This document shows positions 28,566 through 53,622 of a DNA stretch of 63,296 nt, piece after piece. Numbering within the stretch: the first letter of the stretch is position 1; every line of letters starts with the position of its first letter. The stretch is from Pirellulales bacterium. GTDB taxonomy: Bacteria > Planctomycetota > Planctomycetia > Pirellulales > UBA1268. Below the pieces are notes generated by a model. It ran no database searches. It had not been told where the DNA came from and worked only from the letters and a program-made list of their open reading frames with translations. Location of the stretch: contig JBIKKQ010000002.1 of assembly GCA_044360305.1 (NCBI GenBank), positions 1 through 63,296 on the forward strand. The letters are read 5' to 3'. The position numbers were made by a program, and so were the translations under genes.

Positions 28566-28609
28566 TCGCCCGCGAAAACGCGATGCCCGCCCCAAAAAGC
28601 GCCCCCAGA

Positions 28610-28685
28610 AGGACAGGCACGATCCAGGCCGCCCGGGGAAAAAGGACAGGCATAATTCCGGTCCCCCGAACGCAACGGGACAGGC
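28610..28685 (+). promoter_or_regulatory. three phased GGACAGGCA motifs in the MoxR-operon leader
   Basis: GGACAGGCA at 28610-28618, 28643-28651 and 28677-28685, spaced 33 and 34 nt (about three helical turns). The 369-nt leader looks locally less GC-rich. Confidence 0.5.
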
Positions 28686-28934
28686 ATTGTTGGCCCGTAT
28701 TCCCGTTTTTGGGCGATACCCGGCGGCCGCCCTGAGGTTTTCCGCATCCGCTGGGTCGGCCAGTGCGAAACCATCTCCGCTGGGGCATACTTCGGGTGCC
28801 GGAGCCCCACCGGTCCCGCCCGCTGACCCCCAGTTGGCACGGTACGCCGGAGAAACCCGGCTGCCGCCCGAAGTCCGAACCACCGGCTTTCAGCCCAGTT
28901 CACCCCCCCAGGACCCAGACCCACGAGGAACCTC

Positions 28935-29969
28935 ATGGCCACCGTTTCCACTCCCGAACCAGCCGCCAAGCTCAATGACGACGACGTCGCCGCCATCAAC
29001 CGGCTCGGCTCCGTCTATCAGCGGCTCAAGAAGGAACTGGGCCGCGTGATCATCGGGCAGGAGGAGACGGTCGAGCGGCTGACGATCTGCCTGTTCGCCC
29101 GCGGTCACGCGCTCCTGATGGGCGTGCCGGGTCTGGCCAAGACGCTGCTGGTCAGCAAGCTCGCCGAGACGGTGTCGCTGAAGTTCAACCGCATCCAGTT
29201 CACCCCCGACCTGATGCCGATGGACATCACCGGCACCGACATCCTCCAGGAGACCGCCGACGGTCGCCGGGAGTTTCACTTCGTCCCCGGCCCGGTGTTC
29301 GCCAACATCGTGCTCGCCGACGAGATCAACCGTGCCCCGCCGAAGACGCAGGCGGCGATGCTGGAGGCGATGCAGGAGCACAAGGTGACGGTCGTCGGCA
29401 AGACGTCGCGGCTCGATCCGCCGTTCTTCGTGCTCGCCACGCAAAACCCGGTGGAGCAGGAAGGCACTTACCCGCTGCCGGAGGCGCAGCTCGACCGGTT
29501 CATGTTCCTCATCGAGCTCGACTATCCGACCGAGGAGGAGGAGGTGATGATCGCCCGGAGCACCACGGGCAACACGGTCCCCTCGCTGGAGCACGTCCTC
29601 ACGGCGGCTGAGATCATCGACTATCAGCAGATCGTCCGCCGCGTGCCGGTGCCGGATCATATCTACCAGTTCGCGGCCAAGCTCGTCCGCAAGACGCGGC
29701 CGCGCGGCGAGACGGCGCCCGCCTGGCTCAAGCCGCTGGTCTCATGGGGTGCCGGTCCGCGGGCCGTGCAGAACCTGATCCTCGGCGCCAAGTCGCGGGC
29801 GGCGCTCTCCGGCAGCTACATGGTCCGGCTCGAGGACATCGAGGCGGTGGCGGCACCGGTGCTTACGCACCGACTGATCACCACGTTCGCGGCCCAGGCC
29901 GAGGGGATCGACGCCAAGCAGATCGTCGGCCGGCTGGTGAAGGAAACGGTCGCGGAGCAGGTGGGCTGA
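28935..29969 (+). CDS. MoxR-family AAA+ ATPase
   Basis: GAGGA lies 6 nt upstream. Walker A GVPGLAKT, Walker B LADEINRAPPKTQ, FFVLATQNP, LPEAQLDRF and SWGAGPRA are MoxR (AAA_3) signatures. Confidence 0.95.
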   Translation: MATVSTPEPAAKLNDDDVAAINRLGSVYQRLKKELGRVIIGQEETVERLTICLFARGHALLMGVPGLAKTLLVSKLAETVSLKFNRIQFTPDLMPMDITGTDILQETADGRREFHFVPGPVFANIVLADEINRAPPKTQAAMLEAMQEHKVTVVGKTSRLDPPFFVLATQNPVEQEGTYPLPEAQLDRFMFLIELDYPTEEEEVMIARSTTGNTVPSLEHVLTAAEIIDYQQIVRRVPVPDHIYQFAAKLVRKTRPRGETAPAWLKPLVSWGAGPRAVQNLILGAKSRAALSGSYMVRLEDIEAVAAPVLTHRLITTFAAQAEGIDAKQIVGRLVKETVAEQVG

Positions 29970-29991
29970 ACCGCCGAAAGGGACCGAGGGC

Positions 29992-30906
29992 ATGATCGGC
30001 GAACGCCAGACCCGCAGTTTTCTCGACCCCCAGGTTCTCTCGCGATTGGCGAGCGTGCCCCTGCTGGCCCGTCAGCCGATGGTCGGCGGCGTGTCGGGGC
30101 GGCACGTGAGCCCGCACCGCGGGTCGAGCGTGGAGTTCGCCGAGTACCGCAAGTACGTCCCCGGCGACGACCTGCGCCGGCTCGACTGGCGGGCCTTCGG
30201 CCGATCCGACCGGTTTTACGTCAAGGAGTACGAGGCCGACACCAACCTGCGGTGCTGCTTCGTGCTCGACACCTCGGGGTCGATGAACTTCGGCGCCGAG
30301 GGGCGCATGACGAAGATCGACTACGCCCGGCGGATCTGCGGCTCGCTCGCCTACCTCGCCTCCCAGCAGGGAGACGCGGTCGGCATCTCCTGCGTGGCCG
30401 ACGGCATCGTGCGCACGCTGCCGCCGCGACGCAGCCCGACCCACCTCCGGCTCATGTTTGACATCCTCGACGAGGCGAAGCCGGCCGGGGCGTCGCGGCT
30501 CCCCGAGGTGCTCCACGAGCTCGCCGAAACGATCCGGCAGCGGGCCCTGGTGGTGATCGTCTCCGACCTGTTCATGGATCCGGCGGTGCTGGCGTCGAGC
30601 TTCAGCCACCTCCGGTTCCGCCGCCACGACGTGTCGGTCTTCCATCTGCTCGATCCGCAGGAGATCGGCTTCAAGTTCCAGCGGCCGACGCGGTTCCTCG
30701 ACATGGAGGGGGGCGGCTCGATCTTCACCGATCCGGTGGACATCGCCGACCGCTACCACCAGGCGGTGACCCGGTATCTGGAGGGCATGAAGAAGGTGGT
30801 GCTCGAGTCGGGTGTCGATTACCACCGCGTGCTGACCGACGAAAACTACGAGCAGCTGCTGGCGCGATTCCTCGTCGCCCGGGCCGCCGGAAAGGGGCTG
30901 CGATGA
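29992..30906 (+). CDS. DUF58 protein (vWA-like, MoxR partner)
   Basis: GSSVEFAEYRKYVPGDDLRRLDWRAFGRSDRFYVKEYE is the DUF58 hallmark, followed by the MIDAS-like motif LDTSGSM. Confidence 0.9.
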   Translation: MIGERQTRSFLDPQVLSRLASVPLLARQPMVGGVSGRHVSPHRGSSVEFAEYRKYVPGDDLRRLDWRAFGRSDRFYVKEYEADTNLRCCFVLDTSGSMNFGAEGRMTKIDYARRICGSLAYLASQQGDAVGISCVADGIVRTLPPRRSPTHLRLMFDILDEAKPAGASRLPEVLHELAETIRQRALVVIVSDLFMDPAVLASSFSHLRFRRHDVSVFHLLDPQEIGFKFQRPTRFLDMEGGGSIFTDPVDIADRYHQAVTRYLEGMKKVVLESGVDYHRVLTDENYEQLLARFLVARAAGKGLR

Positions 30907-32948
30907 CATTTCTTCAGCCCCTGATGCTCGCGGCCCTGCCGCTGGTGAGCCTGCCGCTCATCATCCACCTGATCAACCAGCGCCGGTTCCAGACCGTGCC
31001 CTGGGCGGCGATGATGTTCCTGATGGCGGCCAAGGCGCTGTCCCGCGGCTACTCCCGGCTGCGGAACTGGCTGATCATGGCGATGCGCATGGCGGCGATC
31101 GCGGCCCTGCTCTTCGCCGTCGGCCGGCCGCTGTCGCGGGGCTGGCTGGCGCTGGCCGGTGGCGCCCGGCCCGACCTCGCCGTCGTGATCCTCGACCGCT
31201 CGCCGTCGATGCAGCAGCGCAGCGTTGCGGCCGCCGACACCAAGCTCGAGACCGGCCGCCGGCAGCTGGTCGAATCGCTGCAGACGCTCGGTGCCTCGCG
31301 ATGCGTGCTGTTCACCGACCCGGCCACGAAGCCGGTCGAGCTCTCCAGTCCCGCGCAGCTCGCCGACCTGCCGGTGGCGGAGCCGACCGCGGCCGCCGCC
31401 GACATCCCGATGCTGATGCAGTCGGTCTACGACTACATGGTGGAAAACAAGGTCGGCACGACGGAGGTCTGGATCTGCTCCGACCAGCGGCAGAACGACT
31501 GGTCGCCGGAGAACGGCGTCTGGGGCGGCCTGCGCGATGCGTTTGCCAAGCTCCCGCAGCAGGTGCGGTTTCAGCTCGTCTCTTATACCGAGCCGGCGAC
31601 CGACAACGTCGCCGTCCGGGTGACGGAGGCGCGGGTCGAGAAACGCGGCGACGATCGCGAGCTCCTGGTGACGGTCGCGGCGTCGCGGCTGGTGTCGGGC
31701 GATAAGAAGACGCTGCCCCTGCGGTTCGAGATCGGCGGCGTCGCCTCGACGGTCGATCTGGAGCTCGTTGGTCGCGAGGCCGTGCTCAAGAATCATCCGA
31801 TCCCGCTGGAGCGGTCCGCGGGGAGCCGCGGCTGGGGCAAGGTGTCGATCGCCGCCGACTCCAACGCCGCCGACAACGAGTTCTACTTCGTCTTCGACGA
31901 GCCCGCGCTGCGGAAGACGATCGTCGTCGCCGAGGATCAGCAGTCGCGCCGGGTCCTGTCGCTGCTCGCCGGCATTCCGCCCGAGAAGGGCCTGCAGGCC
32001 AAGGCCGAGGTCGTCGGTCCGAACGAGCTGGTGACGGCCGACTGGGACGGGACCTCGGTCCTGCTCTGGCAGGCCGATCTCCCCGAGGGGAAGGATGCCG
32101 AGCTCGTCGAGGACTTCGTCAAGCGTGGCGGGCGGGCGATCTTTTTCCCGCCGGAGAATCCCTCCAAGCGTTCATTCGCTGGGCTCTCGTGGGGCGATTG
32201 GACGACGCATGCCGAGCCGGTCAGGCCCGCGCCGTGGCGGAACGATCAGGACCTGTTCGTCAACACGCTCTCCGGCGGCCCGCTGCAGGTGGGCGAGCTG
32301 AGAATCTGGCGTTCGTGCGCCGTCTCGGGCGACCACGTCACGCTGGCTCCGCTGGAGTTCACCGATGCCACCGGCGCGACGATCGCGAGCCCGCTGCTGG
32401 CCCGGGCTTCGGACGGCAGCAACGCCGTCTACTTCTGCGGCACCACGCCCAACGGCCGCGATTCGTCGCTGGCGCGGGATGGGGTCGTGCTGTACGCCAT
32501 GGTGCATCGGGCGATCGATCGCGGCCTCGCGGCCTTGGGCACATCGCGGCAGATGGACGCCGGGCCGGCGGCGGCCTTCCTCGCCGCCGATCAGGCGGGC
32601 TGGACCCGGCTGGCCGGACCGGCTGACGCGCTGTCGACCGAACTGGGGCGGCATGCGGGCGTGTTCGCCAATGGCGACCGCCAGGTCGCCGTGAACCGGC
32701 CCGTCGCCGAGGACACGGCCGAGATCGCCAATGACGGCAGGATCGACGAGGTGTTCGGTGATCTGCCGTTTGCCAGGCTGGTCGGCAAGGCGGGCAATTC
32801 CGACAGCCTCGTGCAGGAAATATGGCGGGCGTTCCTGATCTCGATGATGATCGCGCTGATCGCCGAGGGGCTGCTCTGCCTGCCCCGCTCGGCGGCCGCC
32901 GAGCGGGCTCCCTTCGAAGGCATGCGTCCCCTGGAGGCCGCCGTATGA
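30903..32948 (+). CDS. BatA-domain (N-terminal double-TM) vWA-like membrane protein
   Basis: Start overlaps the DUF58 stop (ATGA). FLQPLMLAALPLVSLPLIIHLINQRR is the BatA/TIGR02226-type N-terminus. ILDRSPSM is a DxSxS motif. C-terminal TM. Confidence 0.8.
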   Translation: MTFLQPLMLAALPLVSLPLIIHLINQRRFQTVPWAAMMFLMAAKALSRGYSRLRNWLIMAMRMAAIAALLFAVGRPLSRGWLALAGGARPDLAVVILDRSPSMQQRSVAAADTKLETGRRQLVESLQTLGASRCVLFTDPATKPVELSSPAQLADLPVAEPTAAAADIPMLMQSVYDYMVENKVGTTEVWICSDQRQNDWSPENGVWGGLRDAFAKLPQQVRFQLVSYTEPATDNVAVRVTEARVEKRGDDRELLVTVAASRLVSGDKKTLPLRFEIGGVASTVDLELVGREAVLKNHPIPLERSAGSRGWGKVSIAADSNAADNEFYFVFDEPALRKTIVVAEDQQSRRVLSLLAGIPPEKGLQAKAEVVGPNELVTADWDGTSVLLWQADLPEGKDAELVEDFVKRGGRAIFFPPENPSKRSFAGLSWGDWTTHAEPVRPAPWRNDQDLFVNTLSGGPLQVGELRIWRSCAVSGDHVTLAPLEFTDATGATIASPLLARASDGSNAVYFCGTTPNGRDSSLARDGVVLYAMVHRAIDRGLAALGTSRQMDAGPAAAFLAADQAGWTRLAGPADALSTELGRHAGVFANGDRQVAVNRPVAEDTAEIANDGRIDEVFGDLPFARLVGKAGNSDSLVQEIWRAFLISMMIALIAEGLLCLPRSAAAERAPFEGMRPLEAAV

Positions 32949-35215
32949 ACCTCCCGGCTATGGTCGTCGCCGACGGTGCGGGCCTCGGGCCGCTGCTTGG
33001 CGCCACGTTGACGCAGTTTCAGGGATTCCGCTTCTTCACGACCTCGTGGACGCTGACCGTGTCGGTGGCGCTGGTGGCGCTCACCGCCTGCATCTGCCTG
33101 GTCGCCTGGCGGCGCAGCGGCTACGCCCCCCTCCAGGGGCTGCTCGAACTGCTGCGGTTCGCGATCGTGTCCCTGGTCGCCGTGCTCCTCAACCAGCCGG
33201 AATGGGTGCAGGAATACCGGCCGTCGGAGAAGCCGACGATCGCCGTGCTCCACGACGGCTCGCCGAGCATGGACACCAAGGACGTCGTCCTCAGCGGCAC
33301 CGGTCCGGGGGCCGGCGTCCCGCAGACCCGGCGCGAGGCGGCGGCGCCGCTGATCGCCGACGAGTTTTGGAAGCCGCTCCGGGATCGGTTCAACGTCGAG
33401 GTAGCCGAGTTTTCCCCCTCCACGGCCGCGGGAAGCGACTACGCGGAACCGCTGGGGGCGGCGGTCGAACGGTTCGAGCAACTGCAGGCGATCGTGCTCG
33501 TCGGTGACGGCGACTGGAACAAGGGGACCGCGCCGAGCGACGCGGCCCAGCGGCTTCGGCTGGCAAGCGTACCCGTGCTGACGGTGGCGGTCGGCAGTCC
33601 GACGAAACTGCCCGACGTGGAGCTCAAGAGCCTCGACATCCCCAGCGTCGGCGTGGCCGGCAAGGCGGTGCGGGTTCCGTTCACGATCGAGTCCTCGCTG
33701 CCCGCCGAGCGGACGGTGACCGTCGAACTCAAGCCGAGCAAGGGGCCGGTGCAGCAGAAGCAGGTCCGGCTGCCGCCCCTGTCCACCACGAACGACTCGA
33801 TTTTCTGGACGCCCGACGGCGTCGGCGAATTCACGGTGACGGTCTCGGTGCCGGCGCAGGAGGGGGAATTGCTTCCCGACAACAACCGGCTGTCGGCGCC
33901 GATCACGATCCGCAAGGAGCAGCTCCAGGTGCTCGTGGTGGAAAGCCTCCCGCGCTGGGAATACCGCTACCTGCGAAACGCCCTGTCGCGCGATCCCGGC
34001 GTCAACGTCTCCTGCCTGCTGTTTCAGCCCGGCCTCAGCCGGCGCGGCGGTGGCAACAAGGACTACATCCAGAAGTTTCCCGCCAAGCTGGAGGAACTGT
34101 CCAAGTACGACGTCGTGTTTCTCGGCGACGTCGGCGTCAACTCCAACCAGCTGTCCGAATCGGACTGCCGGCTGCTCAAGGGGCTCGTCGAGTATCAAGC
34201 CAGCGGGCTCGTCTTCATTCCCGGCTGGCTCGGCGAACAGGCCTCGTTGGTGGGCACGCCGCTGGAGGATCTCTGTCCCGTGGTCATCGACCCGGTCCGG
34301 CGCGAGGGCTTCTCGACCGAGGCGCCGCGGAAGCTGGTGCTCACGGAAGCCGGCCGCAAGAGCCTGCTGACGAAGCTCGCCGACAGCGGCAACGAAAACC
34401 TGGCCGTCTGGGACAGCCTGCCCGGCGTCCAGTGGTACGGTCCCGTGGTCCGCGCCAAGGCGGGCACGGAGGTGCTGGCGGTGCACGAGGACGCGACCAA
34501 CGAGTACGGCCGCATCCCCCTGTTGATCACCCGTCCCTACGGTGCCGGAAAGGTGCTGTACATGGCCACCGATGGCGCCTGGCGCTGGCGGAAGGGAGTC
34601 GAGGACAAGTACCACTATCGGTTCTGGAGCCAGGTGGTCCGCTGGATGGCCTATCGGCGCAACATGGCCAAGGGAGAGCGGATGGGGCTGTCGTTCGCTC
34701 CGGAGCAGCCGCAACTCGGCCAGTCGGTGGCGCTCGACGCCCGGGTCTCCCAGGCCAACGGCGAGCCGCTCAGCCGGGGCGAGGTGGCGGCCCGGATCAC
34801 GTCGCCGTCAGGCGTGGTGGAGACGGTTCGCTTCGCGCCCCCGGCGGGCGACACGGGCTGGGGTGTGTTCGCCTCCGCCTACACGCCCCGCGAGCCCGGC
34901 AAGCACGAGGTGTTGCTGCAGTGCAAGGAGACGGGCGACCGGCTCGAGGCCTCGTTCTTCGTGCAGGGGACGACGGCCGAGGGGATCGGCCGGGCCGCGC
35001 GGCCCAACGTCCTCGCCGAAATCGCCCAGGTCACCAAGGGAAAGGTCGTTCCCCCTGAGGAGGTGGCCTCGATCATCGAATCCCTCGCCAAACTTCCCGA
35101 GCCGCCGCCGCGGGTGCGTCGGCTGCAGTTGTGGTGCCACCCCGTGGTCGCCATCTCGTTGGTGGGATTGCTGGGATTGTTCTGGGTGCTGCGCAAGCAG
35201 CAGGGCCTGATCTGA
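32945..35215 (+). CDS. membrane protein with vWA-like DxSxS motif and GATase1/ThuA-like domain
   Basis: ATGA overlap with the upstream gene. N-terminal TMs, LHDGSPSM, later VLVVESLPRWEYRYLRNAL...YDVVFLGDVG (class-I amidotransferase-like fold as I remember it from planctomycetal Bat-like clusters), C-terminal TM. Confidence 0.7.
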   Translation: MNLPAMVVADGAGLGPLLGATLTQFQGFRFFTTSWTLTVSVALVALTACICLVAWRRSGYAPLQGLLELLRFAIVSLVAVLLNQPEWVQEYRPSEKPTIAVLHDGSPSMDTKDVVLSGTGPGAGVPQTRREAAAPLIADEFWKPLRDRFNVEVAEFSPSTAAGSDYAEPLGAAVERFEQLQAIVLVGDGDWNKGTAPSDAAQRLRLASVPVLTVAVGSPTKLPDVELKSLDIPSVGVAGKAVRVPFTIESSLPAERTVTVELKPSKGPVQQKQVRLPPLSTTNDSIFWTPDGVGEFTVTVSVPAQEGELLPDNNRLSAPITIRKEQLQVLVVESLPRWEYRYLRNALSRDPGVNVSCLLFQPGLSRRGGGNKDYIQKFPAKLEELSKYDVVFLGDVGVNSNQLSESDCRLLKGLVEYQASGLVFIPGWLGEQASLVGTPLEDLCPVVIDPVRREGFSTEAPRKLVLTEAGRKSLLTKLADSGNENLAVWDSLPGVQWYGPVVRAKAGTEVLAVHEDATNEYGRIPLLITRPYGAGKVLYMATDGAWRWRKGVEDKYHYRFWSQVVRWMAYRRNMAKGERMGLSFAPEQPQLGQSVALDARVSQANGEPLSRGEVAARITSPSGVVETVRFAPPAGDTGWGVFASAYTPREPGKHEVLLQCKETGDRLEASFFVQGTTAEGIGRAARPNVLAEIAQVTKGKVVPPEEVASIIESLAKLPEPPPRVRRLQLWCHPVVAISLVGLLGLFWVLRKQQGLI

Positions 35216-35258
35216 ACGCCAAGTTACGTCTCATCGTGGGCAGCAAGGAGTAATCGTC

Positions 35259-38200
35259 ATGAGCACCGTTGAACCGTCGATCGGCCAGGGTGGACGCGGC
35301 ATCATCCTCCCGGCGGACCTCGAAGGGCGGCTGTATGCGTTTCGCGGCCTTGTCTGGCGGATCAAGGTCGCCGAGGCGGTGTGCGGGGCGCTGTTCGGCC
35401 TGATGCTCGCCTACCTGCTCCAGTTCGGCCTCGACCGGGTGATGGAGACGCCGCAGTGGGTGCGGCTCGCCCTGTTCGCCGGTTCGATCATCGGCTGCGC
35501 GGTGGTGCCGCTGGCGGTGCATCGCTGGATCTGGAACCACCGGCGGCTCGACCAGGTGGCCCGGCTGATCGCCCGCCGGTTCCCCAGCATGGGCGACCAG
35601 CTGCTCGGCATCATCGAGATCGTGCGCGAGTTCGCCGCCGGACCCAACGGGGGCGAGCAGGGTCGGTCGCGGGCGCTGTGCGAGGCGGCGATCGGCCAGG
35701 TGGCGACCCAGTCGGTGCGGTATGACTTCAGCCAGGCGGTGCCCCACGCCCGACACCGGCTGTGGGCGATGATCGCCGCCGTTCCGGTGGTGGTGGCCCT
35801 GGCCGCGGCGGTGCTGGCGCCGGCGGCTGCCGCCAACGCATGGGCGCGATTGCTGGCGCCGTGGAAGGCCGTGGAGCGGTTCACGTTCACGCGGGTCGAG
35901 AAGCTGCCGCAGGAGCTGGTGGTGCCGATCGGCGAGCCGGCGCCGCTGACCGTGGGCCTCGCCGCCGATACGCAGTGGAAGCCCGACGGAGCGATCGCCC
36001 GGGTCGGCCGGCAGCGGCCGCTCACCGCCCAGCGCGGCGAGGAGGGGTATGCCTTCACGCTGCCGCCGCAGCTTGACGGTTCGACGCTCTCGCTGGCCGT
36101 GGGGGATGCCCGCGGCCGGACGAAGATCGTGCCGATGCTCCGGCCGGAGATCGAGACGGTGGTGGCCGAGGTGAAGCTGCCGGAGTACCTGAAGCGTGGC
36201 GACACGCTGCGGCAGGACGTCCGCGGCGGCTCGCTGTCGCCGGTCAAGGGGAGCACGGTGACGCTGGCGGCGACGGCGACCCGGGATCTGGCGACGGCGA
36301 CGGTGGACGGCGTGGAGGTGACGCCCGAGGGGGCGACGATCCGCACCGGGCAGATCGCGACCAAGGGCGAATCCCGGGTGTCGCTCGAGTGGCAGGACAG
36401 GCATGGCCTGCAGGGGGCGAAGCCGCTGGTGCTCAACGTGTCGCCGCGGAACGACGACGCCCCGACGGTGACGACGCTGGACGTTCCCGCCAACCGGGAA
36501 TTCCTGCTCACCAGCGACACGCTGCGGTTCAAGATCGCCGTCCGCGACGATTTCGGCATCCGGCGCGTGGGCATCGAGTGGGAGGGGCAGGCGGACGAGG
36601 GGACGGCTCCCGACAAGGGGGACCGGCTGCTGCAGAACGGCGGTCCGTTGGTGGACGCGATCAACGACGTGGCGGCCACGTTCTGCCCTGACGCGCTCGG
36701 CGTGCGGCCGCAGCCGCTCGTGCTCCGCGCGTTCGCGGAGGACTATCTGCCGGGCCGGGGCCGCGTCTATTCGCCGCCGATGCTCGTCTACGTGGTGGAC
36801 AAGGCCGAGCATGCGTTGCTGATGAACGAGCGGCTGAACCGGCTGCGTCGGGACATCACCGAGGTCAAGGACAAGGAGCAGAAGCTGTTTCTGGACAACG
36901 TCGACCTGCGGCTCAAGCCCGCGGACAGCCTGCTGACGCCCGAGGGACGGCAGGAACTCGAGGCGCACGCCCGGGCCGAGGACGAGCAGGCCGAGCGGCT
37001 GCAGGCCGCCGTCGAGAAGGGTGCGGATCTGGTCCGCGAGGCTGGAAAGAACTCGGAGTTCGATCCCGCCACCCTGCAGAAGCTGGCGGACGACCTGAAG
37101 ACGCTGAGTGACCTGAGCGAGAACAAGATGCCGAGCGTGAAGGACCTGCTGATGCAGGCCGCCAAGGCGAAGCAGCCCACTGCAGCCGGCAAGCCGAGTG
37201 CCGATCAACTCGCCGGCAAACCCAGCGAGGGCAAGCCTGGCGAGGGCAAGCCTGGCGAGGGTCAGCCTGGCGAAGGTGAACCGGGTGAGGGTCAGCCCGG
37301 CGAAGGCAAGCCCGGCGAAGGCAAGCCGGGTCAGGGCAAACCTGGCCAGGGCAAGCCCGGTCAAGGCAAGCCGGGTGACAACCAACAGGCAAATGAAGGC
37401 GGACAAGAAGAAGGCAAGGATCCCGCCGATGAGAGCGGCAAGACTCCGGGCGAGGATGGCAAGGATCAGGTCGATGCCGTCGCCAAGAAGGGCGGCGGCA
37501 AGCCCGGTGAACAGGGTGAGCCCAGCCCCCAGGGTCCCAAGGTCGGCAATGACAGGAACGAGCAGGGTGGTGGCGAGGGTGGCAAGCCGGGCAAGCCGGC
37601 GGACACCGTCGCACCGAGCGTCGTGGACAACGAGTCCAGCCAGCAGCCGAAGGATCCCAACCAGAAGGGGAGCGACGGCGGCGGCGGCAAGGCTCCGCCC
37701 CCGCGGCTTGGCCTGCCGAAGACCGCGGCCGGCGTGGCGCCGCCCAAGGACGGTGACGGTGGTGGCGGCGGTGGCGGCGGTGGCGAGGAGGAGGAAGAGC
37801 CGCCGGCTGACGAGGCGCTCGCCGACGCGATCGAGGCCCAGAGGAAACTGCTCGAGGAATTCGCCAAGGTCGCCGACGACCTGGCGAAGGTGATGGCCAA
37901 CCTCGAGGGAAGCACGTTCGTCAAGCGGCTCAAGCTGCTGTCGCGGCGCGAGCTGGCGATCGCCGGCGGCCTCGCCGCGATCAAGCCGGCCGGTTTCGGC
38001 AAGGGGGGCAGCCACCCCGCGGACGTCGCGAAGCACGTGCGCGAGGTCGCCGAGGCCCATGGCCGCGAGACGATGACGCTGTCGAACATCATGGACGACA
38101 TGCAGGCCTACTTCGATCGTCGGCAGTTGCCGGCGTTTCGCTCGGTGCTCGAGGAGATGAAGGGCCTCGACGCGCTCGGCGGCCTGCGGGCGCTCACCGA

Positions 38201-38999: not shown

Positions 39000-40078
39000 A
39001 CGGAAGCATGCGATCAGCCCGCTACCATTGGGCTTGGCTCACGATCACGTTGACCGTGGTCGCCGCCGGTTTCGGGGCGGCGACCACTGAGGCTCAGGTC
39101 GTGGTCATCGGACAGATGCGTTTTGGCGATGGAGCCGTAATGGGCTTTCCGCGGTCAGCGCGGCCGGTGGACGAGGGGAGCGGCCTGATTGCCGGCGACG
39201 ACTTTCGCCGCATCGGCGATCCGTGGTGGGACGACGTGGCCCGGGACGACGGCGGTGACGCCCTGCCCGCGGTGAAGCAAAGGCCTGCCGAGCCGGTGCC
39301 CGTGCCGCCGGTCGCGTTGAATCCCGACGGCTCCGAGAAGCTGCTCGACGCGGCCACGTTGTCGCGCGAGCAGCGGGAGTCGCTTTTTACGGAGTCGGCC
39401 CGGCTGGCGGCGATTACCGGGATGATGTCGCTGCGCCGCGAGCTTACGGCCGTGCGTCACGTCCGTCCGGCGCTCGACGAGCAGCAGCGGTCGTTCGTGC
39501 TCGCCGCCGGGCGGAAGGCCCTGCGCGAGAGGCTCTCGGCGCTCGCCGAGAAGCCGCTGACGCGATGGAAGAAGGAGCAGAAGCGGTCCCTCGAGGACAC
39601 GATCCGCGAGGCACTGGCCGCCTCGCTCGCCGCCAACGAATCGGACGCAGCCCGAGACGCGTATGTCGCCGAGGTGGCCCGGCGTGACGAGCGTCGGAAG
39701 CGGGCCGCGGTGGACGTGGTCGTGGCCGAGATCGACCGTGACGCCCGGCTCAGCATCGCTGAGCGGACGCGGCTCACCGACGGGCTCGTCGAGTCGTATC
39801 GGGAGTCATGGCGGGGCCTGACCGAGGCGTTCGCCGGCGACCAGGCGTTTGCCGTCGGCATGCCGTTGCCCAACGGTCTCGATCGAAGCGTGGAACGCCT
39901 TCTCGGCAAGCAACGGGCCGGTGAGTGGCAGGCCCGCCGCCAGACGGCCTTGCAGGAAGTCGGCATGCAGGTGGGACATGCCCAGATGCACCAAATCCGC
40001 GCCGGTGGTCGGGCGATTCTTGTGCGACCCAATGGCCCGGCCCTGCCGCAGGCGGACGTCGAGGCCGAGGCAAACTGA
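38996..40078 (+). CDS. secreted helical protein, type-1 member of a duplicated pair
   Basis: ATGA overlap with the upstream gene. Signal peptide (WLTITLTVVAAGFGAATTEA). VVVAEIDRDARLSIAERTRLTDGLVESY aligns with VLVADIDRVLDLSAEQRSAIDAALESQW of 42162..43130. Confidence 0.6.
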   Translation: MNGSMRSARYHWAWLTITLTVVAAGFGAATTEAQVVVIGQMRFGDGAVMGFPRSARPVDEGSGLIAGDDFRRIGDPWWDDVARDDGGDALPAVKQRPAEPVPVPPVALNPDGSEKLLDAATLSREQRESLFTESARLAAITGMMSLRRELTAVRHVRPALDEQQRSFVLAAGRKALRERLSALAEKPLTRWKKEQKRSLEDTIREALAASLAANESDAARDAYVAEVARRDERRKRAAVDVVVAEIDRDARLSIAERTRLTDGLVESYRESWRGLTEAFAGDQAFAVGMPLPNGLDRSVERLLGKQRAGEWQARRQTALQEVGMQVGHAQMHQIRAGGRAILVRPNGPALPQADVEAEAN

Positions 40079-40085
40079 GGCTGCC

Positions 40086-41015
40086 ATGCTGACCGCGATC
40101 CATGCCGGGTCCGGGAGCCGACGACCTCGGGCCGGCGCGATCCTGCTCGCGGTTCTCGCCGCCGCCGGTGGCGTTCGCTGCAGCGGCCAGGATCAGGTTC
40201 AACTGCTCCAATTCGGTGGCGGCCAGGGGGCATTCGACCTCGGCGCCCAATTCGATCAGGCCGTGTTCGGCGGCGTCGCGAATCCCGGTCGTCCGGCCGA
40301 CGGCGACACGGCGGACCGGCTGAAGCGGGTCCGCGCGGCGGGCGAGGACCGGATCGAGCAGATCCACCGGGTCGTGAACCTGTCCGCCGAGCAACGCGCG
40401 AAACTCCGCGTGGCGATGGAGGCGGACGTGGGCCGGCTCGCCGAGGAGATCGACGGCATCCGGGCCGGCTACGAAGGGCAAAAACTCGCGGTGAACCCCG
40501 ACGGGACGGGGCAGGAGAAACTGCAGGAGCGGATGCAGCAGATGCAGAACGACATCGCGGCGTGCCAGCGGATGATCGCGGCCACGTTCGGACCGGCGGC
40601 CCTGCTCTCCAAGGTCCTCGGCGACACGCTCGACGAGCGGCAGAACAAGCTCTACGCGGAGGCGCTGGCCATCCGGCGCGGGGGCCTGTGGAAGGCCCTG
40701 ATCGGGGCCGCACTGACGGCGCAGGATGGCGTGCTCGGTCTCACGCAGGGGCAACACGAGGCGGTCGAGGCCCTGCTCATGGCCGACCCGCCGCCGCTCG
40801 TCCTCGAGCGGACCCCGCGGCGCGGGCCCGGCACGACCCTGCCCGCCGTCGGTCTGGTGATGCTGCGGCTCGATCAACTTGGCGACGAGAAGCTGGCCGC
40901 GGTGCTCGATCCGCGGCAGCGGGCCGTGGTCGCGGCGCTGGCGAGACAGCATGGCGAGCCGGCCGAGGTGCAGGCGCAGTTGGTCGCGGCCGGCATCCTG
41001 GAGGAGAGTCCGTGA
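40086..41015 (+). CDS. secreted helical protein, type-2 member of a duplicated pair
   Basis: ATG lies 7 nt after the upstream stop. Signal-like AILLAVLAAAGG. Blocks IEQIHRVVNLSAEQRAKLRVAMEAD and LGLTQGQHEAVEALLMA align with 43130..44089. Confidence 0.6.
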   Translation: MLTAIHAGSGSRRPRAGAILLAVLAAAGGVRCSGQDQVQLLQFGGGQGAFDLGAQFDQAVFGGVANPGRPADGDTADRLKRVRAAGEDRIEQIHRVVNLSAEQRAKLRVAMEADVGRLAEEIDGIRAGYEGQKLAVNPDGTGQEKLQERMQQMQNDIAACQRMIAATFGPAALLSKVLGDTLDERQNKLYAEALAIRRGGLWKALIGAALTAQDGVLGLTQGQHEAVEALLMADPPPLVLERTPRRGPGTTLPAVGLVMLRLDQLGDEKLAAVLDPRQRAVVAALARQHGEPAEVQAQLVAAGILEESP

Positions 41016-41029
41016 ACGAAGGAGAAGCG

Positions 41030-42139
41030 ATGCAAGGGCATGGCAGGCTGGTGGCGATCGTGGCGCTGGTCTTCGGGGTCGTGGCCGGCCATCTGGCCGG
41101 GGCGCAGACGCCGCTTGTCAAGTACGGCGACCCGGTGCCGCGCGACGTGCGCGAGATCTACGACGCAGGGCTCCGCTACCTCCTCAAGACCCAGGCCGAG
41201 GACGGCTCGTGGAAGGACGGCCAGGCGGGTCCGGGCGTGACGGGCATGCCGTTGATGGTGCTCCTCGCCTCGGGCGAGGATCCGAATTACGGCCCCTACC
41301 GCGTCCCCATCCGCAAGGCGCTGCGGAGCATCATCGAGGGCCAGGACCCGAACGTCGGCTACCTCTGCAACGCCAACAACGGCCACGACAGCATGTATCA
41401 GCACGGCTTCGCCATGCTGTCCCTGGCCGAGGCCTACGGCGTGGTGGACGACCGCACGCTGTGGACGGAGCCCGGCGCCAAGGCGGGGGGCAAGGGGGCG
41501 GGGCGGTCGATCGGCAAGGCGCTGGAACTGGCGGTGCGGTGCGCCGTGACCAGCGGCAAGCAGAATCCGACGGGGGGCTGGCGGTACGGCCCGGAGGCGA
41601 AGGACGCCGACACGTCGGTGAGCGGCGCCGTGCTCATGGGGCTGCTCGCGGCCCGGAACTCGGGGATCGAGGTGCCGGACGAGACGATCGACCGGGCGAT
41701 CAAGTACTACGTGACGATGACCTCCGGCAACGGGCAGGTGGGCTATTCGGGGGGCGCCGGCGGCGGCAGCCCCGCGGTGACCTCGATCGGCGTGCTCGTC
41801 TACTCGATCGCCCGCCGGCAGGAACTGCCTCAGTACAAGGCGGCCTCGAAGTATCTCGTCAGCCTGAGCACCGGCGGCGGTGCGGGCATGGGGGGCATGG
41901 GGCACGGCTACCCGGGCTACACCGAGTATTACCAGGCACAGGCCCTGTTCCAGGCCGATGTCGAGGCGTGGCGGAGATGGAACGACGGGCTCGTCAAGCA
42001 GCTCAAGCGGATGCAGCAGAAGGACGGCAGCCTTGCCGGAGGACAGCGGGGTGGCATGATGGGTGGCACGGTGGGCACGTCGCTCTACCTGCTTTCGCTG
42101 GCGGTGAATTTCAAGTTTCTGCCGGTCTACGAGCGCTGA
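41030..42139 (+). CDS. secreted prenyltransferase/squalene-oxidase-repeat (alpha-alpha toroid) protein
   Basis: GGAGAAG lies upstream, followed by a signal peptide. Repeated Q-W-like units (GLRYLLKTQAEDGSW, TSGKQNPTGGWRY, SVSGAVLMGLLAARNSG, KRMQQKDGSL) are typical of terpenoid-cyclase/prenyltransferase-like repeats. Confidence 0.75.
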   Translation: MQGHGRLVAIVALVFGVVAGHLAGAQTPLVKYGDPVPRDVREIYDAGLRYLLKTQAEDGSWKDGQAGPGVTGMPLMVLLASGEDPNYGPYRVPIRKALRSIIEGQDPNVGYLCNANNGHDSMYQHGFAMLSLAEAYGVVDDRTLWTEPGAKAGGKGAGRSIGKALELAVRCAVTSGKQNPTGGWRYGPEAKDADTSVSGAVLMGLLAARNSGIEVPDETIDRAIKYYVTMTSGNGQVGYSGGAGGGSPAVTSIGVLVYSIARRQELPQYKAASKYLVSLSTGGGAGMGGMGHGYPGYTEYYQAQALFQADVEAWRRWNDGLVKQLKRMQQKDGSLAGGQRGGMMGGTVGTSLYLLSLAVNFKFLPVYER

Positions 42140-42161
42140 CGCGCATCCCGGGAGCCGCCTC

Positions 42162-43130
42162 ATGGCACCGCGTTTCTGGCTCACCGTCGCCCTGTTCATC
42201 GCCGCTGCCGGCGCCGCCGCGACGCTCCATGCCGAGGACGACGCCGCGCGGAAGGCCGAGCAGCAGAAGGCCGAGGCCGAGGCCAAGGCCAAGATGAAGG
42301 CCGACGCCGAGGCCAAGCAGAAGGCCGAGGCCGCAAAGAGGGCCGAGGCGGCGCAGGCGAGGCAGGCGATGCAGGTGGAGTTGCAGAAAGTCGTCGTCAC
42401 CGACCTCGATCCTGCCAGCGACGGGCCGCAGCCCGAGGGAGATCCGAAGGCGATCCAGGTCTGGCAGCGAAAGCAGCAGATCCGGCAGCACGCCGGGAAC
42501 CTCCAAGCCCAGATTCAGCCGCTGCTCCGCGGCGAGCTCGAGCTGATCCGGCAAACCTGCGGCGGCCTCGACGCGGCGGCCCGACGCCGCGTGTTGTCTT
42601 CCGGCACGGTCGCCCTGGCAAAAGCCGCTCTCGACGCCGCCAACGCGCAGTTCGGTCGTGGCGGCCACCAGGTTGTGACTGGACAGGTCATGTCGAAGAG
42701 CCTGGCCACGGCGTTGGAAAAGGAGGCCAGTGCCGAGGAGTTCGCCGCCTACCGGGCCGAGCAGCAGCAGCGATCGGCCCGCCGCCGCCAGGTGGCGCGG
42801 CGAGTCCTCGTCGCGGACATCGACCGGGTCCTGGATCTTTCCGCCGAGCAGCGGTCCGCGATCGACGCCGCGCTCGAAAGCCAGTGGCAGGAAGGCTGGC
42901 CGACGTCGTCGAGCGTGGTTGCCGACAACCAGATTGCGCCGGACTTCGCCGAGGGCTGCATCCTCCCGAGCCTGTCGCCACGGCAACGGGAGACGTGGAG
43001 GTCGTGGTGTGAGCATCGCGGCTGGAAGAAGATGGTGGCGCAGAATCCGCACTTCGCCGGTGCGATGCAGTTCCAAAGGAATCATCTCGGCCATGTGGTT
43101 ATGCAGGCCGACGCGTGGTGGGGCGACTGA
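42162..43130 (+). CDS. secreted helical protein, type-1 (second copy)
   Basis: Signal peptide, then an AEQQKAEAEAKAKMKADAEAKQKAEAAKRAEAAQARQA coiled-coil. Homology blocks with 38996..40078. Confidence 0.6.
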   Translation: MAPRFWLTVALFIAAAGAAATLHAEDDAARKAEQQKAEAEAKAKMKADAEAKQKAEAAKRAEAAQARQAMQVELQKVVVTDLDPASDGPQPEGDPKAIQVWQRKQQIRQHAGNLQAQIQPLLRGELELIRQTCGGLDAAARRRVLSSGTVALAKAALDAANAQFGRGGHQVVTGQVMSKSLATALEKEASAEEFAAYRAEQQQRSARRRQVARRVLVADIDRVLDLSAEQRSAIDAALESQWQEGWPTSSSVVADNQIAPDFAEGCILPSLSPRQRETWRSWCEHRGWKKMVAQNPHFAGAMQFQRNHLGHVVMQADAWWGD

Positions 43131-44089
43131 TGGAACGATCCCACGATGGGCGCGAAACGAGCCGGAGCCGTGGCGGGGCGGTGTGGGTCATCGTCGTCGT
43201 CGGCCTGCTCGCAGCGTCCATGAGCCGGGCGGACGACGACATCGTCGTGGAGGAGGGGCCGGTTGGGGTGCAGGAGGGCGGCCGGGTGGTGAACGCGAGA
43301 ATCGGCGGTCGCGTTGCCCAGCCCAACCTGACAGCGCACTACGACTCGGTTTTGTTCGGTGTTTTCGACGCCGCGCGGATGCCGTTTCCGCATCCGGCTG
43401 CGAAGCCTGCGCCGCAGCAGGCCTCCCCGCGCGATCGGGTGGGCCTGATCGCGGACGAGGTCCTGCGACGCATCGATGCCGTCGTCGGTCTGACGGCGGC
43501 GCAGCGCGATCGGCTCCGGCAGGCGATCGACGGCGACCTCGAGCCGGCGATCGAGCAGATCGAGGCCGATCGCCGGCGGTATGCGGACCTGCCCCCGGCT
43601 GGTGATCAGTTCGCGCAGCAGGCAACGTACGCCAGGCTTCAGGAGGATGCCCTCGGCGGCCGGGAGTTGCTCGCCCGGGCCTGGGATTCCGACTCACTGC
43701 TCCAGAAGATCCTGCCCACGACGCTCGACGCGGAGCAAGACGACCGTCTGCACGCCGCCCTCGCCGCCCGCCTGGCCGGTCGCTGGGGAGCGGCCGTGGC
43801 GGTGGCACTCGACACGCTCGACGAGTCGCTCGGCCTGACGACGAAGCAGCATGCGGCCCTGGAACAGGCGCTGCTGGCCAGGCAGCCGCGATTGCGGGTT
43901 CTGCTGCCGCCGGGCCTGGATAACAGCCATACGCGGTTTCAGTTGGTGTGCATCCAACTGGCCGCGATGGACGAAGCCGATCTGAAACCGCTCGTCACCG
44001 ACCGGCAGTGGGCCGCTCTCGAGGGCTGGCGGCAGAATGGCCACACCATGCTGCCGCATTTCGTGAAACAGGGGTGGTACGAGCCATGA
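43130..44089 (+). CDS. secreted helical protein, type-2 (second copy)
   Basis: ATG 43130 overlaps the upstream TGA by 1 nt. TM/signal VWVIVVVGLLAAS. LRRIDAVVGLTAAQRDRLRQAIDGD and LGLTTKQHAALEQALLA align with 40086..41015. Confidence 0.6.
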   Translation: MERSHDGRETSRSRGGAVWVIVVVGLLAASMSRADDDIVVEEGPVGVQEGGRVVNARIGGRVAQPNLTAHYDSVLFGVFDAARMPFPHPAAKPAPQQASPRDRVGLIADEVLRRIDAVVGLTAAQRDRLRQAIDGDLEPAIEQIEADRRRYADLPPAGDQFAQQATYARLQEDALGGRELLARAWDSDSLLQKILPTTLDAEQDDRLHAALAARLAGRWGAAVAVALDTLDESLGLTTKQHAALEQALLARQPRLRVLLPPGLDNSHTRFQLVCIQLAAMDEADLKPLVTDRQWAALEGWRQNGHTMLPHFVKQGWYEP

Positions 44090-46800
44090 GCAGGAACACG
44101 ACCGTGGGTGGTGACCGAGTGTCGAGCGGGGTTGGCCATGGCCGGGCGGCGTTCGTGGCGCGATCGTGCATGGCCAGAACCGTCGCCACGGCGGTCGCGG
44201 TCGTGATTCTTTGCTGCCCGCCCGTGCCGCGTGTGGCGGAGGCTGACCAGTTGATGCGGGAGCCGGCGACGGATACGCCGGCAGCGCCAGCGAAGCCGGC
44301 GGCCGCGCCGCTCCTGGCGGCTCCAGATGCAACCGCGGCGCCGGTGCTCGACCTCCGCGGCGACGGCTTCAGCGTCGGCAAACTGCTCGACGCGCCGGCC
44401 GTCGCCGGCGGACCGCGGACGACGCTGCTCTGGCAGTCGGACCTGTTTGCCAAACCGCTGGAGTTCGCCATCCCTGAGATCGTCCGGATCCGGCTCCCGC
44501 GCGGGCAGGGGGTGAAGGCCGAGCCCGGCGACTGGCGGTTCGAACTCCGCGGTGGAGACACGATCATCGGCGGCCTCGAGGGGGTCGATGCGGACTGGTT
44601 CACGGTCGCTCCGCGGGACATCGGCGGCGGCGGGCCGCTGCGGGTCAGGCGCGGGGCGGTCGAACGGATGCGCCGGATGGATGCGGCGACGCGAGCGATC
44701 CTCCCCGGCTCGCTCGACGGCTGGGACGCCGTCCGCGGCGTGTGGCAGGAGCAGGCCGGCATGCTGGCGAGCGACCGGCCCAACGCGGTGGCGTTTCGAG
44801 ACGTCGGGGCGCCGGCCAAGGCCTGCTACGACGTCGTGCTCTCGTGGACAACGCGGCCCGACTTCGATCTGTACGTCGCCACCGACGCGGAGCAGTTCGC
44901 CCGGATCAAGGCCCCTGTGCCGGGCAAGAAGCCGGCCGACATCGAGGAGTACAGGCTGCAGGGCGTCAGCGGCAAGGTGCAGGCCTGGCGTGAGGGGGTA
45001 AAGGCCGACTTCGGCGAGATCGCCCCGCTGGACGCGGCCGGCGGCAGGCTGCACCTGCAGGTGTTCGTCGATCAGGAGACGGGCCGGATGGCGGTGGCGT
45101 TGCCCCAGAACGGTCAGCCGGCGGACAAGCCGGCCTTCGACAAGACCGTGGCCCCGCGGAAGCCGGCGGCCCGGCCCGGATTCGCCATCAAGCTGCGCAA
45201 GGGAACGATCCGCATCGACAGCCTGCGGGTGCTGTCGTGGGACGGAGGGCAGCCGCGGCTCGAGCCGGTCGCCGGCCTGGGAAGCAGGACGGCGGTGCTG
45301 GAGTCGTTCGACAAGGCTGCGGGGGAGTTCGTCGTCCGCGATGGTGCGGAGACCCGCCGGGTCGCCGTGGCCGCCGCCGGCGACGTGGAGTTTCCCGCGG
45401 ACCAGGCCGGTCCGGCGCCGGACCGCAGCCCGGCCGCGATGCTCGTCGGCTTCGCCGCCGGCAGCCGGCTGATCGCGGCGGTGCGCGAGATCGCCATGGG
45501 CAAGCTCGTGGTCGAGAGCCCGATCATCGAGGCGCCGATGGCCTGTCCGCTCGACCGGGTTTCGCTGCTCGAATCGGTCGGTCCCGGCCAGCCACAGGTG
45601 CTGCCGGGGCGCGTCGGGCTTCTCGAATCGGCCAAGGACCGAATGCTCGGCTGCGTGGGGCAGGCCGACGGCTTCGGCTGGCAGCCGTTGGGCGCCGTGT
45701 CGGCGGCCCCGTTCGCGGCCGTGCAGGCGGGGACGAAGATCTCGTTCCGCGGCACGTCGCTGCTCGGTGGGGCCGGCCTCACGCTGTCCAAGGTCGGCAA
45801 CGAGTGGTCGGTCGCTGAGATCGCTCCCGGCGGACCGGCGGCCCGGGACGGGCGGATCCAGCGCGGCTGGAAACTGGAGGCGATCCAACTGCTCCCCGAC
45901 GGGACGGCGGTTCCGGCCGCCGGCCTCAAGATCGAGGAACTGGTGGCCCTGCTCCGCGGCATCGTCGGCTCGGGCGTCGGCCTGCGACTGAAGGACCCGC
46001 AGGGCGCGGCCCACGAGGTGACGCTGACCCGTGACCGGGCGGGGCGCGGCGACGTCGGCAGCGTCCCCGAGCAGGACCTGCTCGCCGCCGCGGACCGGGT
46101 CCAGGATGACAAGTCGGGCATCAAGCCTGCCGGTGCCGGGGGCGGCAGCCGGATCACGCTCAAGACCGGTGACGCGATCTTCGGCACGGTCGTGTCGGCG
46201 AACGCCGAAGGCCTGCGGGTGAGGACCGACCGCGGCGGCGAGATCCTGATCCCTGCCGCGATCCTCCGGGCGGCCGAGTTGGTGAACACCACGGGCACGA
46301 CGATCACTCTGCAGAAAATGGAGCGGCTCACGACGCTGCCCCGGATGCAGATGGCCGACCCGCCCACCCACATGATCCGGCTCGAGTCGGGGGATTACCT
46401 GCGGGGCAAGCTGCTGTCGCTCGATGCCGACACGCTGAAGTTCAAGGTGCTGGAGGAGACCAAGGAGTTTCCCCGGGCGATGCTCGCCCGGATCATCTGG
46501 CTGACGGTTGCGGGAGACGGCTCGGATCAGAAGGCGGTCGAGCTGATGGCCGGCGGGGCGGGCCTGCCGGTGCAGGCCGTGGCCATCGACAAGCGGCGGC
46601 TCACCGGCGCCGCCGAACGGGTGGAGGATGGCCGGCTGGTCGGCACCGCCGGCCCGATCGGCCAGCTGCAGATCGACCTCAAGACCTGCGAGGCGCTGTT
46701 CGTCGGGGCGGCGATCGCGGCCCAGCCACCCGGCCCCAACAGTTTCAAGCAGTGGGAGCTCAAGCCGGCGAAGCCGCCGGCGGCGCTCATCAAGAAGTGA
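44086..46800 (+). CDS. 904-aa exported PDZ-containing repeat protein
   Basis: ATGA overlap with the upstream gene. Signal/anchor TVATAVAVVILCC. PDZ-like WSVAEIAPGGPAARDGRIQRGWKLEAI...GLRLKD. At least three ~45-aa modules of type (I/F)xLxxGDxxxGxLxxxDAxxLxxxxxxxxxxxFPxxxxxxI. Confidence 0.65.
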   Translation: MSRNTTVGGDRVSSGVGHGRAAFVARSCMARTVATAVAVVILCCPPVPRVAEADQLMREPATDTPAAPAKPAAAPLLAAPDATAAPVLDLRGDGFSVGKLLDAPAVAGGPRTTLLWQSDLFAKPLEFAIPEIVRIRLPRGQGVKAEPGDWRFELRGGDTIIGGLEGVDADWFTVAPRDIGGGGPLRVRRGAVERMRRMDAATRAILPGSLDGWDAVRGVWQEQAGMLASDRPNAVAFRDVGAPAKACYDVVLSWTTRPDFDLYVATDAEQFARIKAPVPGKKPADIEEYRLQGVSGKVQAWREGVKADFGEIAPLDAAGGRLHLQVFVDQETGRMAVALPQNGQPADKPAFDKTVAPRKPAARPGFAIKLRKGTIRIDSLRVLSWDGGQPRLEPVAGLGSRTAVLESFDKAAGEFVVRDGAETRRVAVAAAGDVEFPADQAGPAPDRSPAAMLVGFAAGSRLIAAVREIAMGKLVVESPIIEAPMACPLDRVSLLESVGPGQPQVLPGRVGLLESAKDRMLGCVGQADGFGWQPLGAVSAAPFAAVQAGTKISFRGTSLLGGAGLTLSKVGNEWSVAEIAPGGPAARDGRIQRGWKLEAIQLLPDGTAVPAAGLKIEELVALLRGIVGSGVGLRLKDPQGAAHEVTLTRDRAGRGDVGSVPEQDLLAAADRVQDDKSGIKPAGAGGGSRITLKTGDAIFGTVVSANAEGLRVRTDRGGEILIPAAILRAAELVNTTGTTITLQKMERLTTLPRMQMADPPTHMIRLESGDYLRGKLLSLDADTLKFKVLEETKEFPRAMLARIIWLTVAGDGSDQKAVELMAGGAGLPVQAVAIDKRRLTGAAERVEDGRLVGTAGPIGQLQIDLKTCEALFVGAAIAAQPPGPNSFKQWELKPAKPPAALIKK

Positions 46801-51447: not shown

Positions 51448-53622
<2,175 letters not shown>

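Follow-up and report, generated by a model that had tools for sequence, protein, structure and literature searches.

Genes for AAA+ ATPases of the MoxR type stand beside a gene for a partner with a VWA domain and a metal-ion-dependent adhesion site (MIDAS) in the RavA-ViaA, CbbQ-CbbO and NorQ-NorD systems. A chaperone-like or remodelling role is expected of such MoxR-VWA pairs, and the clients of RavA-ViaA-type systems are defined cytoplasmic or membrane enzymes. To our knowledge, few bacterial gene neighbourhoods that lack a known mechanism are as widespread as the combination of MoxR with DUF58 and BatA proteins, and no target of its ATPase has ever been identified. Our study reports on a gene cluster that opens with such a core in a contig of Pirellulales bacterium (JBIKKQ010000002.1, assembly GCA_044360305.1); the window, by which we mean the whole stretch of DNA analysed, comprises 63,296 nucleotides with about 70% G+C. 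Eleven consecutive plus-strand genes (g1-g11) span positions 28935-46800, and we hold with moderate confidence that they constitute one envelope system of two modules (g1-g4 and g5-g11), with a role in ATP-assisted envelope assembly or maintenance. The core module is of a kind already known; what is new is a conserved, lineage-specific g5-g11 module drawn largely from undescribed families.

The core has its nearest described counterparts in the Alphaproteobacteria. A tblastn search of g4 against PLSDB reached alphaproteobacterial replicons, among them a Shinella operon (locus L080) that encodes AAA_3, DUF58, BatA plus DUF4159 and GATase1_like proteins, the same four types in the same order as g1-g4; its fourth gene matches g4 over 82% of the length (E = 3e-8). 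The two loci differ in that the third Shinella protein carries DUF4159 (177.9 bits), for which g3 has no match at E≤10, and has a degenerate DxSxS motif (DNSWA) where that of g3 is intact, and in that the Shinella operon ends after four genes, while the cluster in the window has seven more. The same architecture is found in RL3499-RL3502 (cmdA-cmdD) of Rhizobium leguminosarum. Secondary accounts report that mutation of these genes leads to defects in envelope integrity and morphology (Vanderlinde, 2011, as cited in PMC5700661 and PMC5118466), and transposon sequencing showed impaired growth on complex medium for RL3499 and RL3500 (PMC5118466). By analogy, this envelope phenotype is consistent with the predicted envelope location of the products described here.

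The Bat operons of Bacteroides and spirochaetes likewise start with MoxR and DUF58 genes and continue with genes for VWA proteins of the inner membrane that bear the N-terminal BatA hairpin; they differ in that batC-E are unrelated to g5-g11, and in that GATase1-like domains occur on our side, in g4 and apparently in g3. Since no TPR (BatC), BatD or SH3/TPR (BatE) family appears among the Pfam matches of the eleven products, we class the core as cmd type and not as canonical Bacteroides BatA-E. A different architecture again, in which MoxR-vWA is accompanied by a transglutaminase-like peptidase, has been described (PMC3495828). In comparison with RavA-ViaA-type pairs, the sole candidate clients in our cluster are membrane and exported proteins. 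Two other papers from the Aravind group, to judge by their titles, reportedly deal with MoxR-vWA conflict systems. A literature search for MoxR, DUF58 or BatA in conjunction with planctomycete terms returned no description of the g5-g11 extension, in agreement with an earlier note on this DNA, whose author knew of no described MoxR/Bat system with such proteins.

Each of the four core products has a clear family assignment. The product of g1 (28935-29969; 344 amino acids) matches the Pfam models AAA_3 (210.6 bits, cut-off 27) and AAA_lid_2 (47 bits, cut-off 22.7), has visible Walker A (GVPGLAKT) and Walker B (VLADEINR) motifs, contains no membrane segment in a hydropathy scan and is predicted to be cytoplasmic. 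The DUF58 gene lies directly downstream (g2, 29992-30906; 304 amino acids), and its product matches DUF58 (145.5 bits, cut-off 23.4) and VWA_2 (30.6 bits, cut-off 27) and bears a MIDAS-type DTSGS motif at residue 93; a single hydropathy window over threshold (residues 186-204) corresponds to a VWA beta-strand, and this protein too is predicted to be cytoplasmic. The next two genes encode inner-membrane proteins with two N-terminal transmembrane helices and one C-terminal transmembrane helix apiece, according to the hydropathy scan. In g3 (30903-32948; 681 amino acids), which matches BatA at 60.6 bits (cut-off 25.9) and TIGR02226 at 73.7 bits (cut-off 23.05), the layout runs from a BatA_N double-transmembrane hairpin through a DRSPS motif at residue 98 to the C-terminal helix. 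In g4 (32945-35215; 756 amino acids) a transmembrane hairpin comes first and a DGSPS motif begins at residue 104; a GATase1-like domain (31.9 bits), an Ig/filamin-like domain (weak Filamin match, E = 1.2e-3) and the C-terminal helix complete the protein, which also gives a weak VWA match (E = 0.067).

These two membrane proteins are paralogous (hhalign, 98%, E = 1.9e-13, 426 aligned columns). No match of g4 to the BatA_N/TIGR02226 model was found; the alignment with g3 begins at the second transmembrane helix and the g3 region extends as far as the start of the GATase1-like domain of g4. The DxSxS motif lies just after the second helix in both, and is kept in all planctomycete homologues aligned, including 21 of 21 for g4. 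From the positive-inside rule, applied to the basic loop between the first two helices and the basic C-terminal tails, the large domains of g3 and g4 are predicted to be periplasmic. Experiments have placed the BatA-type protein BB0173 of Borrelia in the inner membrane, with three transmembrane helices and a periplasmic VWFA domain (PMC5700661); its arrangement of two helices before and one after the domain agrees with that of g3 and g4, and we count it as a precedent for the periplasmic placement. The earlier note had named a MoxR ATPase, a DUF58 protein, a BatA-type double-transmembrane protein and a second membrane protein as the core, and these parts were confirmed by Pfam and NCBIfam, the expected AAA_3, DUF58 and BatA matches all being obtained above their cut-offs; its description of the core as Bat-type holds for the Bat-like nature of the proteins but not for the gene set, which is that of cmdABCD/RL3499-3502 rather than BatA-E.

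Gene models drawn from the open reading frame list and a start-codon scan show how tightly the eleven genes are packed. Start and stop codons overlap at five junctions, as ATGA at 30903, 32945, 38996 and 44086 and as TGATG at 43130; the remaining junctions in the block have gaps of 22 (g1-g2), 43, 7, 14 and 22 nucleotides, of which that between g4 and g5 is the longest. Upstream of moxR lies a leader of 369 nucleotides (28566-28934, plus strand), in which neither an Rfam family nor a sigma-70-like promoter match was found, and a convergent gene follows the block. This reproduces exactly the gene model of the earlier note. A scan of the block gave no promoter-like sites, and terminator-like sites were no commoner in it than in shuffled sequence; the long antisense open reading frames inside it are the usual high-GC artefacts, given the base composition of the window. 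The note had further judged the block to be probably one operon. The overlaps and short gaps make this likely here, but a single operon is not obligatory, since the g4-g5 junction is separable in relatives. We infer that the genes are co-transcribed and that their products form a physical complex with the topology and function proposed below.

The seven genes of the extension start with g5 (35259-38999), which encodes a protein of 1246 amino acids with an anchor of three transmembrane segments. It is followed by g6 (38996-40078) and g7 (40086-41015) for predicted exported all-alpha proteins of what we call families A and B, by g8 (41030-42139) for a predicted exported alpha/alpha toroid of 369 amino acids, by a second pair of predicted exported all-alpha proteins (g9, 42162-43130, family A; g10, 43130-44089, family B), and by g11 (44086-46800) for a predicted exported, beta-rich protein of 904 amino acids. 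A hydrophobic N-terminal segment was found by the hydropathy scan (threshold 1.6) in g3-g5 and g7-g11. No hydropathy window of g6 reaches 1.6, and for this protein the prediction of export comes from its N-terminal stretch, WAWLTITLTVVAAGFGAA, judged by eye. Nine products are thus predicted to be exported or membrane-anchored; the claim that all but the ATPase and the DUF58 protein carry a signal or anchor was upheld by the scan for eight and by eye for g6. None of the g5-g11 products matched a characterised family with an unrelated role.

Core and extension recur as neighbours in related genomes. A genome scan with g8 yielded 79 loci, almost all from Pirellulales-like metagenome-assembled genomes and a few from more distant Planctomycetes-Verrucomicrobia-Chlamydiae genomes, which were analysed by tblastn and family hidden Markov models (HMMs); loci are called close where g8 is at least 40% identical. 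Dozens of related genomes share the order g1-g5 ... g8 ... g11. Among close loci, g5 lies upstream of the toroid gene in 36 of the 40 that could be tested, g3 or g4 is present in 27 of 33, and tblastn finds g11 in 31 of 44, to which the HMMs add four (L059, L061, L065 and L067). In these 27 loci the two modules are adjacent, across g8 identities of approximately 47-88%, and the 4-nucleotide overlaps recur in relatives, including independent gene calls on long contigs from JGI (the same cluster). In the helical pairs the order is always A then B, every detected pair adjoins a toroid gene or another A/B pair, and each side of the toroid has either no pair or one among the loci. The question posed by the earlier note, whether homologues of g5-g11 co-occur with moxR-DUF58, is thus answered in the affirmative for most related genomes, and on this point its proposal was not refuted.

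Several observations weigh against a single system. The g4-g5 junction is a module boundary: g5 has its own strong ribosome-binding site there (AAGGAG, after the longest gap of the block), and the gap itself is variable in relatives (about 23 nucleotides in L002, 167 in L008 and 245 in L082). In L064 and L069 the g1-g4 module is inverted, and so divergent from g5-g8-g11, and in six loci (L036, L039, L040, L042, L046 and L049) g5-g8-g11 or g8-g11 occur with no g1-g4 within 5-10 kb; loci with extension genes but lacking g1-g4 include some Rubripirellula and Aureliella. An entire subclade, to which L010, L014, L018, L022, L082 and L084 belong among others, lacks g11, and the number of A/B pairs varies. 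Leptospira deleted for the full bat locus showed no phenotype in growth, morphology or oxidative stress (PMC3557215), a result that leaves the function of the wider Bat class unsettled. Finally, the MoxR ATPase is predicted to be cytoplasmic, and the domains on which it would act to be periplasmic.

The boundary, the inversions and the six loci without a core, together with the end of the Shinella operon after four genes, favour an alternative in which two independent systems happen to be neighbours, a self-sufficient cmdABCD-type operon (g1-g4) and an extension (g5-g11) with a promoter and function of its own. We regard this as rather unlikely, though it is the alternative that we take most seriously. 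The modules are adjacent in 27 of the 33 testable loci, even when inverted, and in three other planctomycete lineages (L070-L072) a toroid gene abuts moxR in a different way, for which a chance neighbourhood is no explanation. In these Isosphaeraceae, Gemmataceae and Phycisphaerae loci, and in one further metagenome-assembled genome (L079), a toroid gene lies directly upstream of moxR-DUF58-BatA; this independent arrangement supports a real link between toroid and MoxR.

Some of the loci extend the picture of the family in other ways. Tandem duplication of the toroid gene is seen in L002, L003, L004, L006, L007 and L016 (at about 10000-12200 in each), the duplicated copies lying side by side between the two A/B pairs; in L003 and L004, where the locus breaks off early, they follow the one pair found upstream. 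Complete g1-g5, g8 and g11 clusters occur in metagenome-assembled genomes labelled Candidatus Poribacteria (L053, L054) or, in several cases, Candidatus Kuenenia, with g8 47-78% identical to that of the window; this would mean a spread beyond the Pirellulales, unless the labels on these records cannot be relied upon. When genomes were scanned twice for g8-type genes, the loci recovered came from metagenome-assembled genomes only and from no cultured strain. A partial likeness is found on pPL62-3, an 81-kb plasmid of Planctomyces sp. SH-PL62 (L081, 551-14056), where DUF58, BatA-domain and g4-like VWA genes are followed by three genes for hypothetical proteins and one for a beta-rich protein of 912 amino acids. 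This locus differs from ours in that no g5, toroid or A/B genes were detected in it, and in that the large protein contains NPCBM and DUF1583 domains; we rejected this NPCBM protein as a homologue of g11, pairwise BLASTP giving nothing and the g11 family HMM giving a weak match (E = 8e-6) that points to no more than a distant relationship. The plasmid copy suggests that such clusters can be mobile or duplicated.

The anchor protein g5 is most conserved near the membrane. Between its second and third transmembrane segments lie about 80 basic residues, predicted to be cytoplasmic, and when the protein is divided into blocks of 40 residues conservation peaks at residues 81-120 (column identity 0.61), also predicted to be cytoplasmic. 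The exported part consists of beta-rich Ig-like domains (weak Big_7 match) followed by helical segments, between which lie a (GEGKP)n array and poly-Gly linkers; this low-complexity part is the least conserved, at 0.12-0.16 column identity. The array is encoded by a 15-nucleotide tandem repeat of about 10 copies at 37215-37378, after which several poly-Gly runs follow, and it probably explains, with the poly-Gly stretch, the local peaks of AT-skew (0.257) and GC-skew (0.122) at 36-38 kb. Neither half of g5 matches a Pfam or NCBIfam model at E≤10, and DUF4175/TIGR02302, an alphaproteobacterial low-complexity membrane protein considered as a possible relative, was rejected after no match was found for g5 at E≤10 or for ten distant relatives. 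The family is nevertheless large, with at least 750 matches among 90%-identity clusters, and a profile of the N-terminal 614 residues finds 4301 representative clusters at E≤1e-3, of which 646 remain at E≤1e-30. The three membrane segments and the GEGKP and poly-Gly tracts bear out the description of g5 in the earlier note as a membrane-anchored, low-complexity giant.

The exported partners comprise a multidomain protein, a helical family and a toroid. The AlphaFold2 model of g11 is nearly all beta (mean confidence, pLDDT, 77.8) and contains small beta-barrel repeats, a ConA-like jelly roll at about residues 220-385 and a Tsp/Prc-type PDZ domain at about 559-651, as expected of the PDZ/repeat protein that had been noted in its place. 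Foldseek matches of the jelly roll are to lectins, C-terminal domains of GH32 enzymes and DUF1080-type structures, and the PDZ domain superposes on that of Ctp (6bxg) with a TM-score of 0.83 and a root-mean-square deviation of 1.8 Å. Residues 559-651 align with positions 246-334 of the 645 of the NCBIfam Tsp/Prc model (E = 1.3e-5), the match to the full model reaching 24 bits against a cut-off of 700; the NCBIfam Tsp, Prc and Ctp models all match the PDZ part alone, and neither NCBIfam nor Foldseek reveals an S41 peptidase domain. Some homologues of g11 are larger, at 1000-1400 amino acids, and have an additional PQQ_2 propeller, redoxin/AhpC-TSA or thioredoxin domains (P0126, P0128-P0130, P0133, P0135 and P0137; L016:14098-18210); the redoxin and thioredoxin domains hint at a periplasmic redox connection.

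The four helical proteins form paralogous pairs, g6 with g9 (family A, E = 9e-6) and g7 with g10 (family B, E = 1e-17), and families A and B are themselves related (hhalign, 98%, E = 2.9e-13). The duplicated pair that had been described as flanking the toroid is therefore a real duplication, but all four proteins belong to one family. A profile search with A/B found 115 clusters, all unnamed or called hypothetical, and the few labelled with an organism are from planctomycete metagenome-assembled genomes; neither a PDB relative, in a profile search of PDB sequences, nor an above-threshold Pfam match was obtained. The g9 product has an Ala/Lys/Glu-rich N-terminal stretch. An L(S/T)xxQ motif occurs twice, and invariantly, in every protein of family B; in the AlphaFold2 model of g7 (all-alpha, pLDDT 78) the two copies cap helices at L99/Q103 and L219/Q223. 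The motifs resemble those of CpxP and Spy, but this is no evidence of membership, and we rejected g6, g7, g9 and g10 as Spy/CpxP/ZraP (LTXXQ) chaperones, the best LTXXQ match having an E-value of 0.063 and 14.4 bits against a cut-off of 24.3.

These proteins invite a second alternative, namely periplasmic quality control, with the A/B proteins as Spy/CpxP-like holdases, g11 as a PDZ substrate adaptor and MoxR resetting the system across the membrane at the expense of ATP. The Tsp/Prc-type PDZ domain, the redoxin, AhpC-TSA or thioredoxin domains of some g11 homologues, the paired L(S/T)xxQ motifs and the sub-threshold LTXXQ matches (E = 0.06-0.1) in 3 of 77 A/B members would all suit such a role, and MoxR ATPases are chaperone-like in general (PMC3893208). 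We consider it unlikely all the same: the LTXXQ matches stay below threshold, the g7 model finds neither Spy, CpxP nor any other PDB chain with Foldseek (best E = 0.8), no protease domain is encoded in the cluster, and the jelly roll and the toroid would be left unexplained.

The toroid itself suggests a third alternative, periplasmic processing of isoprenoids or hopanoids centred on g8 as a terpene cyclase or prenyltransferase. Squalene-hopene cyclase (E = 1e-13) and lanosterol synthase are both matched by the profile of the g8 family, with E-values from 1e-13 to 1e-9, and 25 of the 39 family members match SQHop_cyclase_C (best E = 5.8e-11; a further model, DUF6288, is matched by 9 of the 39). 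The fold of the alpha-toroid (prenyltransferase-like) protein of the earlier note is borne out in this way, but the terpene-cyclase motifs are missing. The profile matches cover only about 100 residues, of the QW-type repeat, g8 itself falls below the Pfam cut-off (21 against 26.1 bits), DxDD is present in none of the 39 members and DDxxD is absent from g8 of the window. For want of these two motifs we rejected g8 as an active terpene cyclase, and its sequence gives it a non-catalytic appearance. With export predicted for g8 too, and a cluster that contains no gene for isoprenoid synthesis, processing of isoprenoids seems to us highly improbable.

Our analysis suggests a model for the eleven proteins as one envelope system. 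In the first module, g1 would form the cytoplasmic MoxR AAA+ ring and g2 its DUF58 adaptor, with the MIDAS-bearing VWA-like and GATase1-like domains of g3 and g4 facing the periplasm. The second module would be a Pirellulales-type periplasmic extension, in which g5 may serve as membrane anchor with a long flexible tether, the two A/B pairs (g6/g7 and g9/g10) flank the putative toroid g8, and g11 would contribute a lectin/PDZ multidomain protein. We propose that MoxR-DUF58 assembles or remodels the g3/g4/g5 scaffold from its cytoplasmic face, via short cytoplasmic loops and tails, and that it may dock at the strongly conserved juxtamembrane segment of g5. On the periplasmic side, the MIDAS domains could then hold the exported partners together with the tether of g5; these partners may bind envelope substrates such as protein C-termini (PDZ) and glycans or lipids (jelly roll, toroid); the net role would lie in envelope assembly, integrity or proteostasis. 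A bolder form of the model, in which ATP hydrolysis by MoxR-DUF58 drives, via g3, g4 and g5, the assembly of a dedicated set of exported proteins with novel folds or their capture and release of substrates, is in our view speculative and improbable. Were it true, such a trans-envelope machine would power envelope maintenance or proteostasis in the periplasm, a compartment free of ATP, and might underlie a planctomycete-specific envelope structure. The extension supplies a widespread ATPase system, hitherto an orphan, with definite candidates for its clients or effectors, by which Bat/Cmd function could become directly testable, and it would add to the poorly known envelope biology of the Planctomycetota.

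The genes on either side appear to lie outside the cluster. The convergent gene at 46813-49068 (minus strand) encodes a TolC-like outer-membrane efflux protein (OEP, 74.4 bits), and lies directly downstream in close relatives, with or without g11; at 73-90% amino-acid identity it is far more conserved than the periplasmic genes of the cluster. We considered it as an outer-membrane part of the system and rejected it as plain local synteny, because the genes beyond it, dn2 and one for a type III glutamine synthetase, keep their places in close relatives as well and because the TolC-like gene is not adjacent in more distant loci. On the other side, the cluster is taken to start at g1, since the genes upstream of moxR differ between relatives. 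The product of the gene at about 27435-28565 (plus strand) combines a hydrophobic anchor at its N-terminus with a CPFC motif and a HEAT_2 match of 23.3 bits (cut-off 27.7); this gene was placed outside the cluster because neither L082 nor L084 keeps it upstream of moxR. Farther downstream, the gene at 51448-53640 (minus strand) is 91-93% identical to the syntenic gene in L001, L005 and L084, and the GSIII_N and Gln-synt_C domains called on the L084 counterpart indicate that it is the type III glutamine synthetase. At the gathering threshold, Rfam matches the window just once, at a tRNA gene (10905-10977, plus strand; 74.2 bits).

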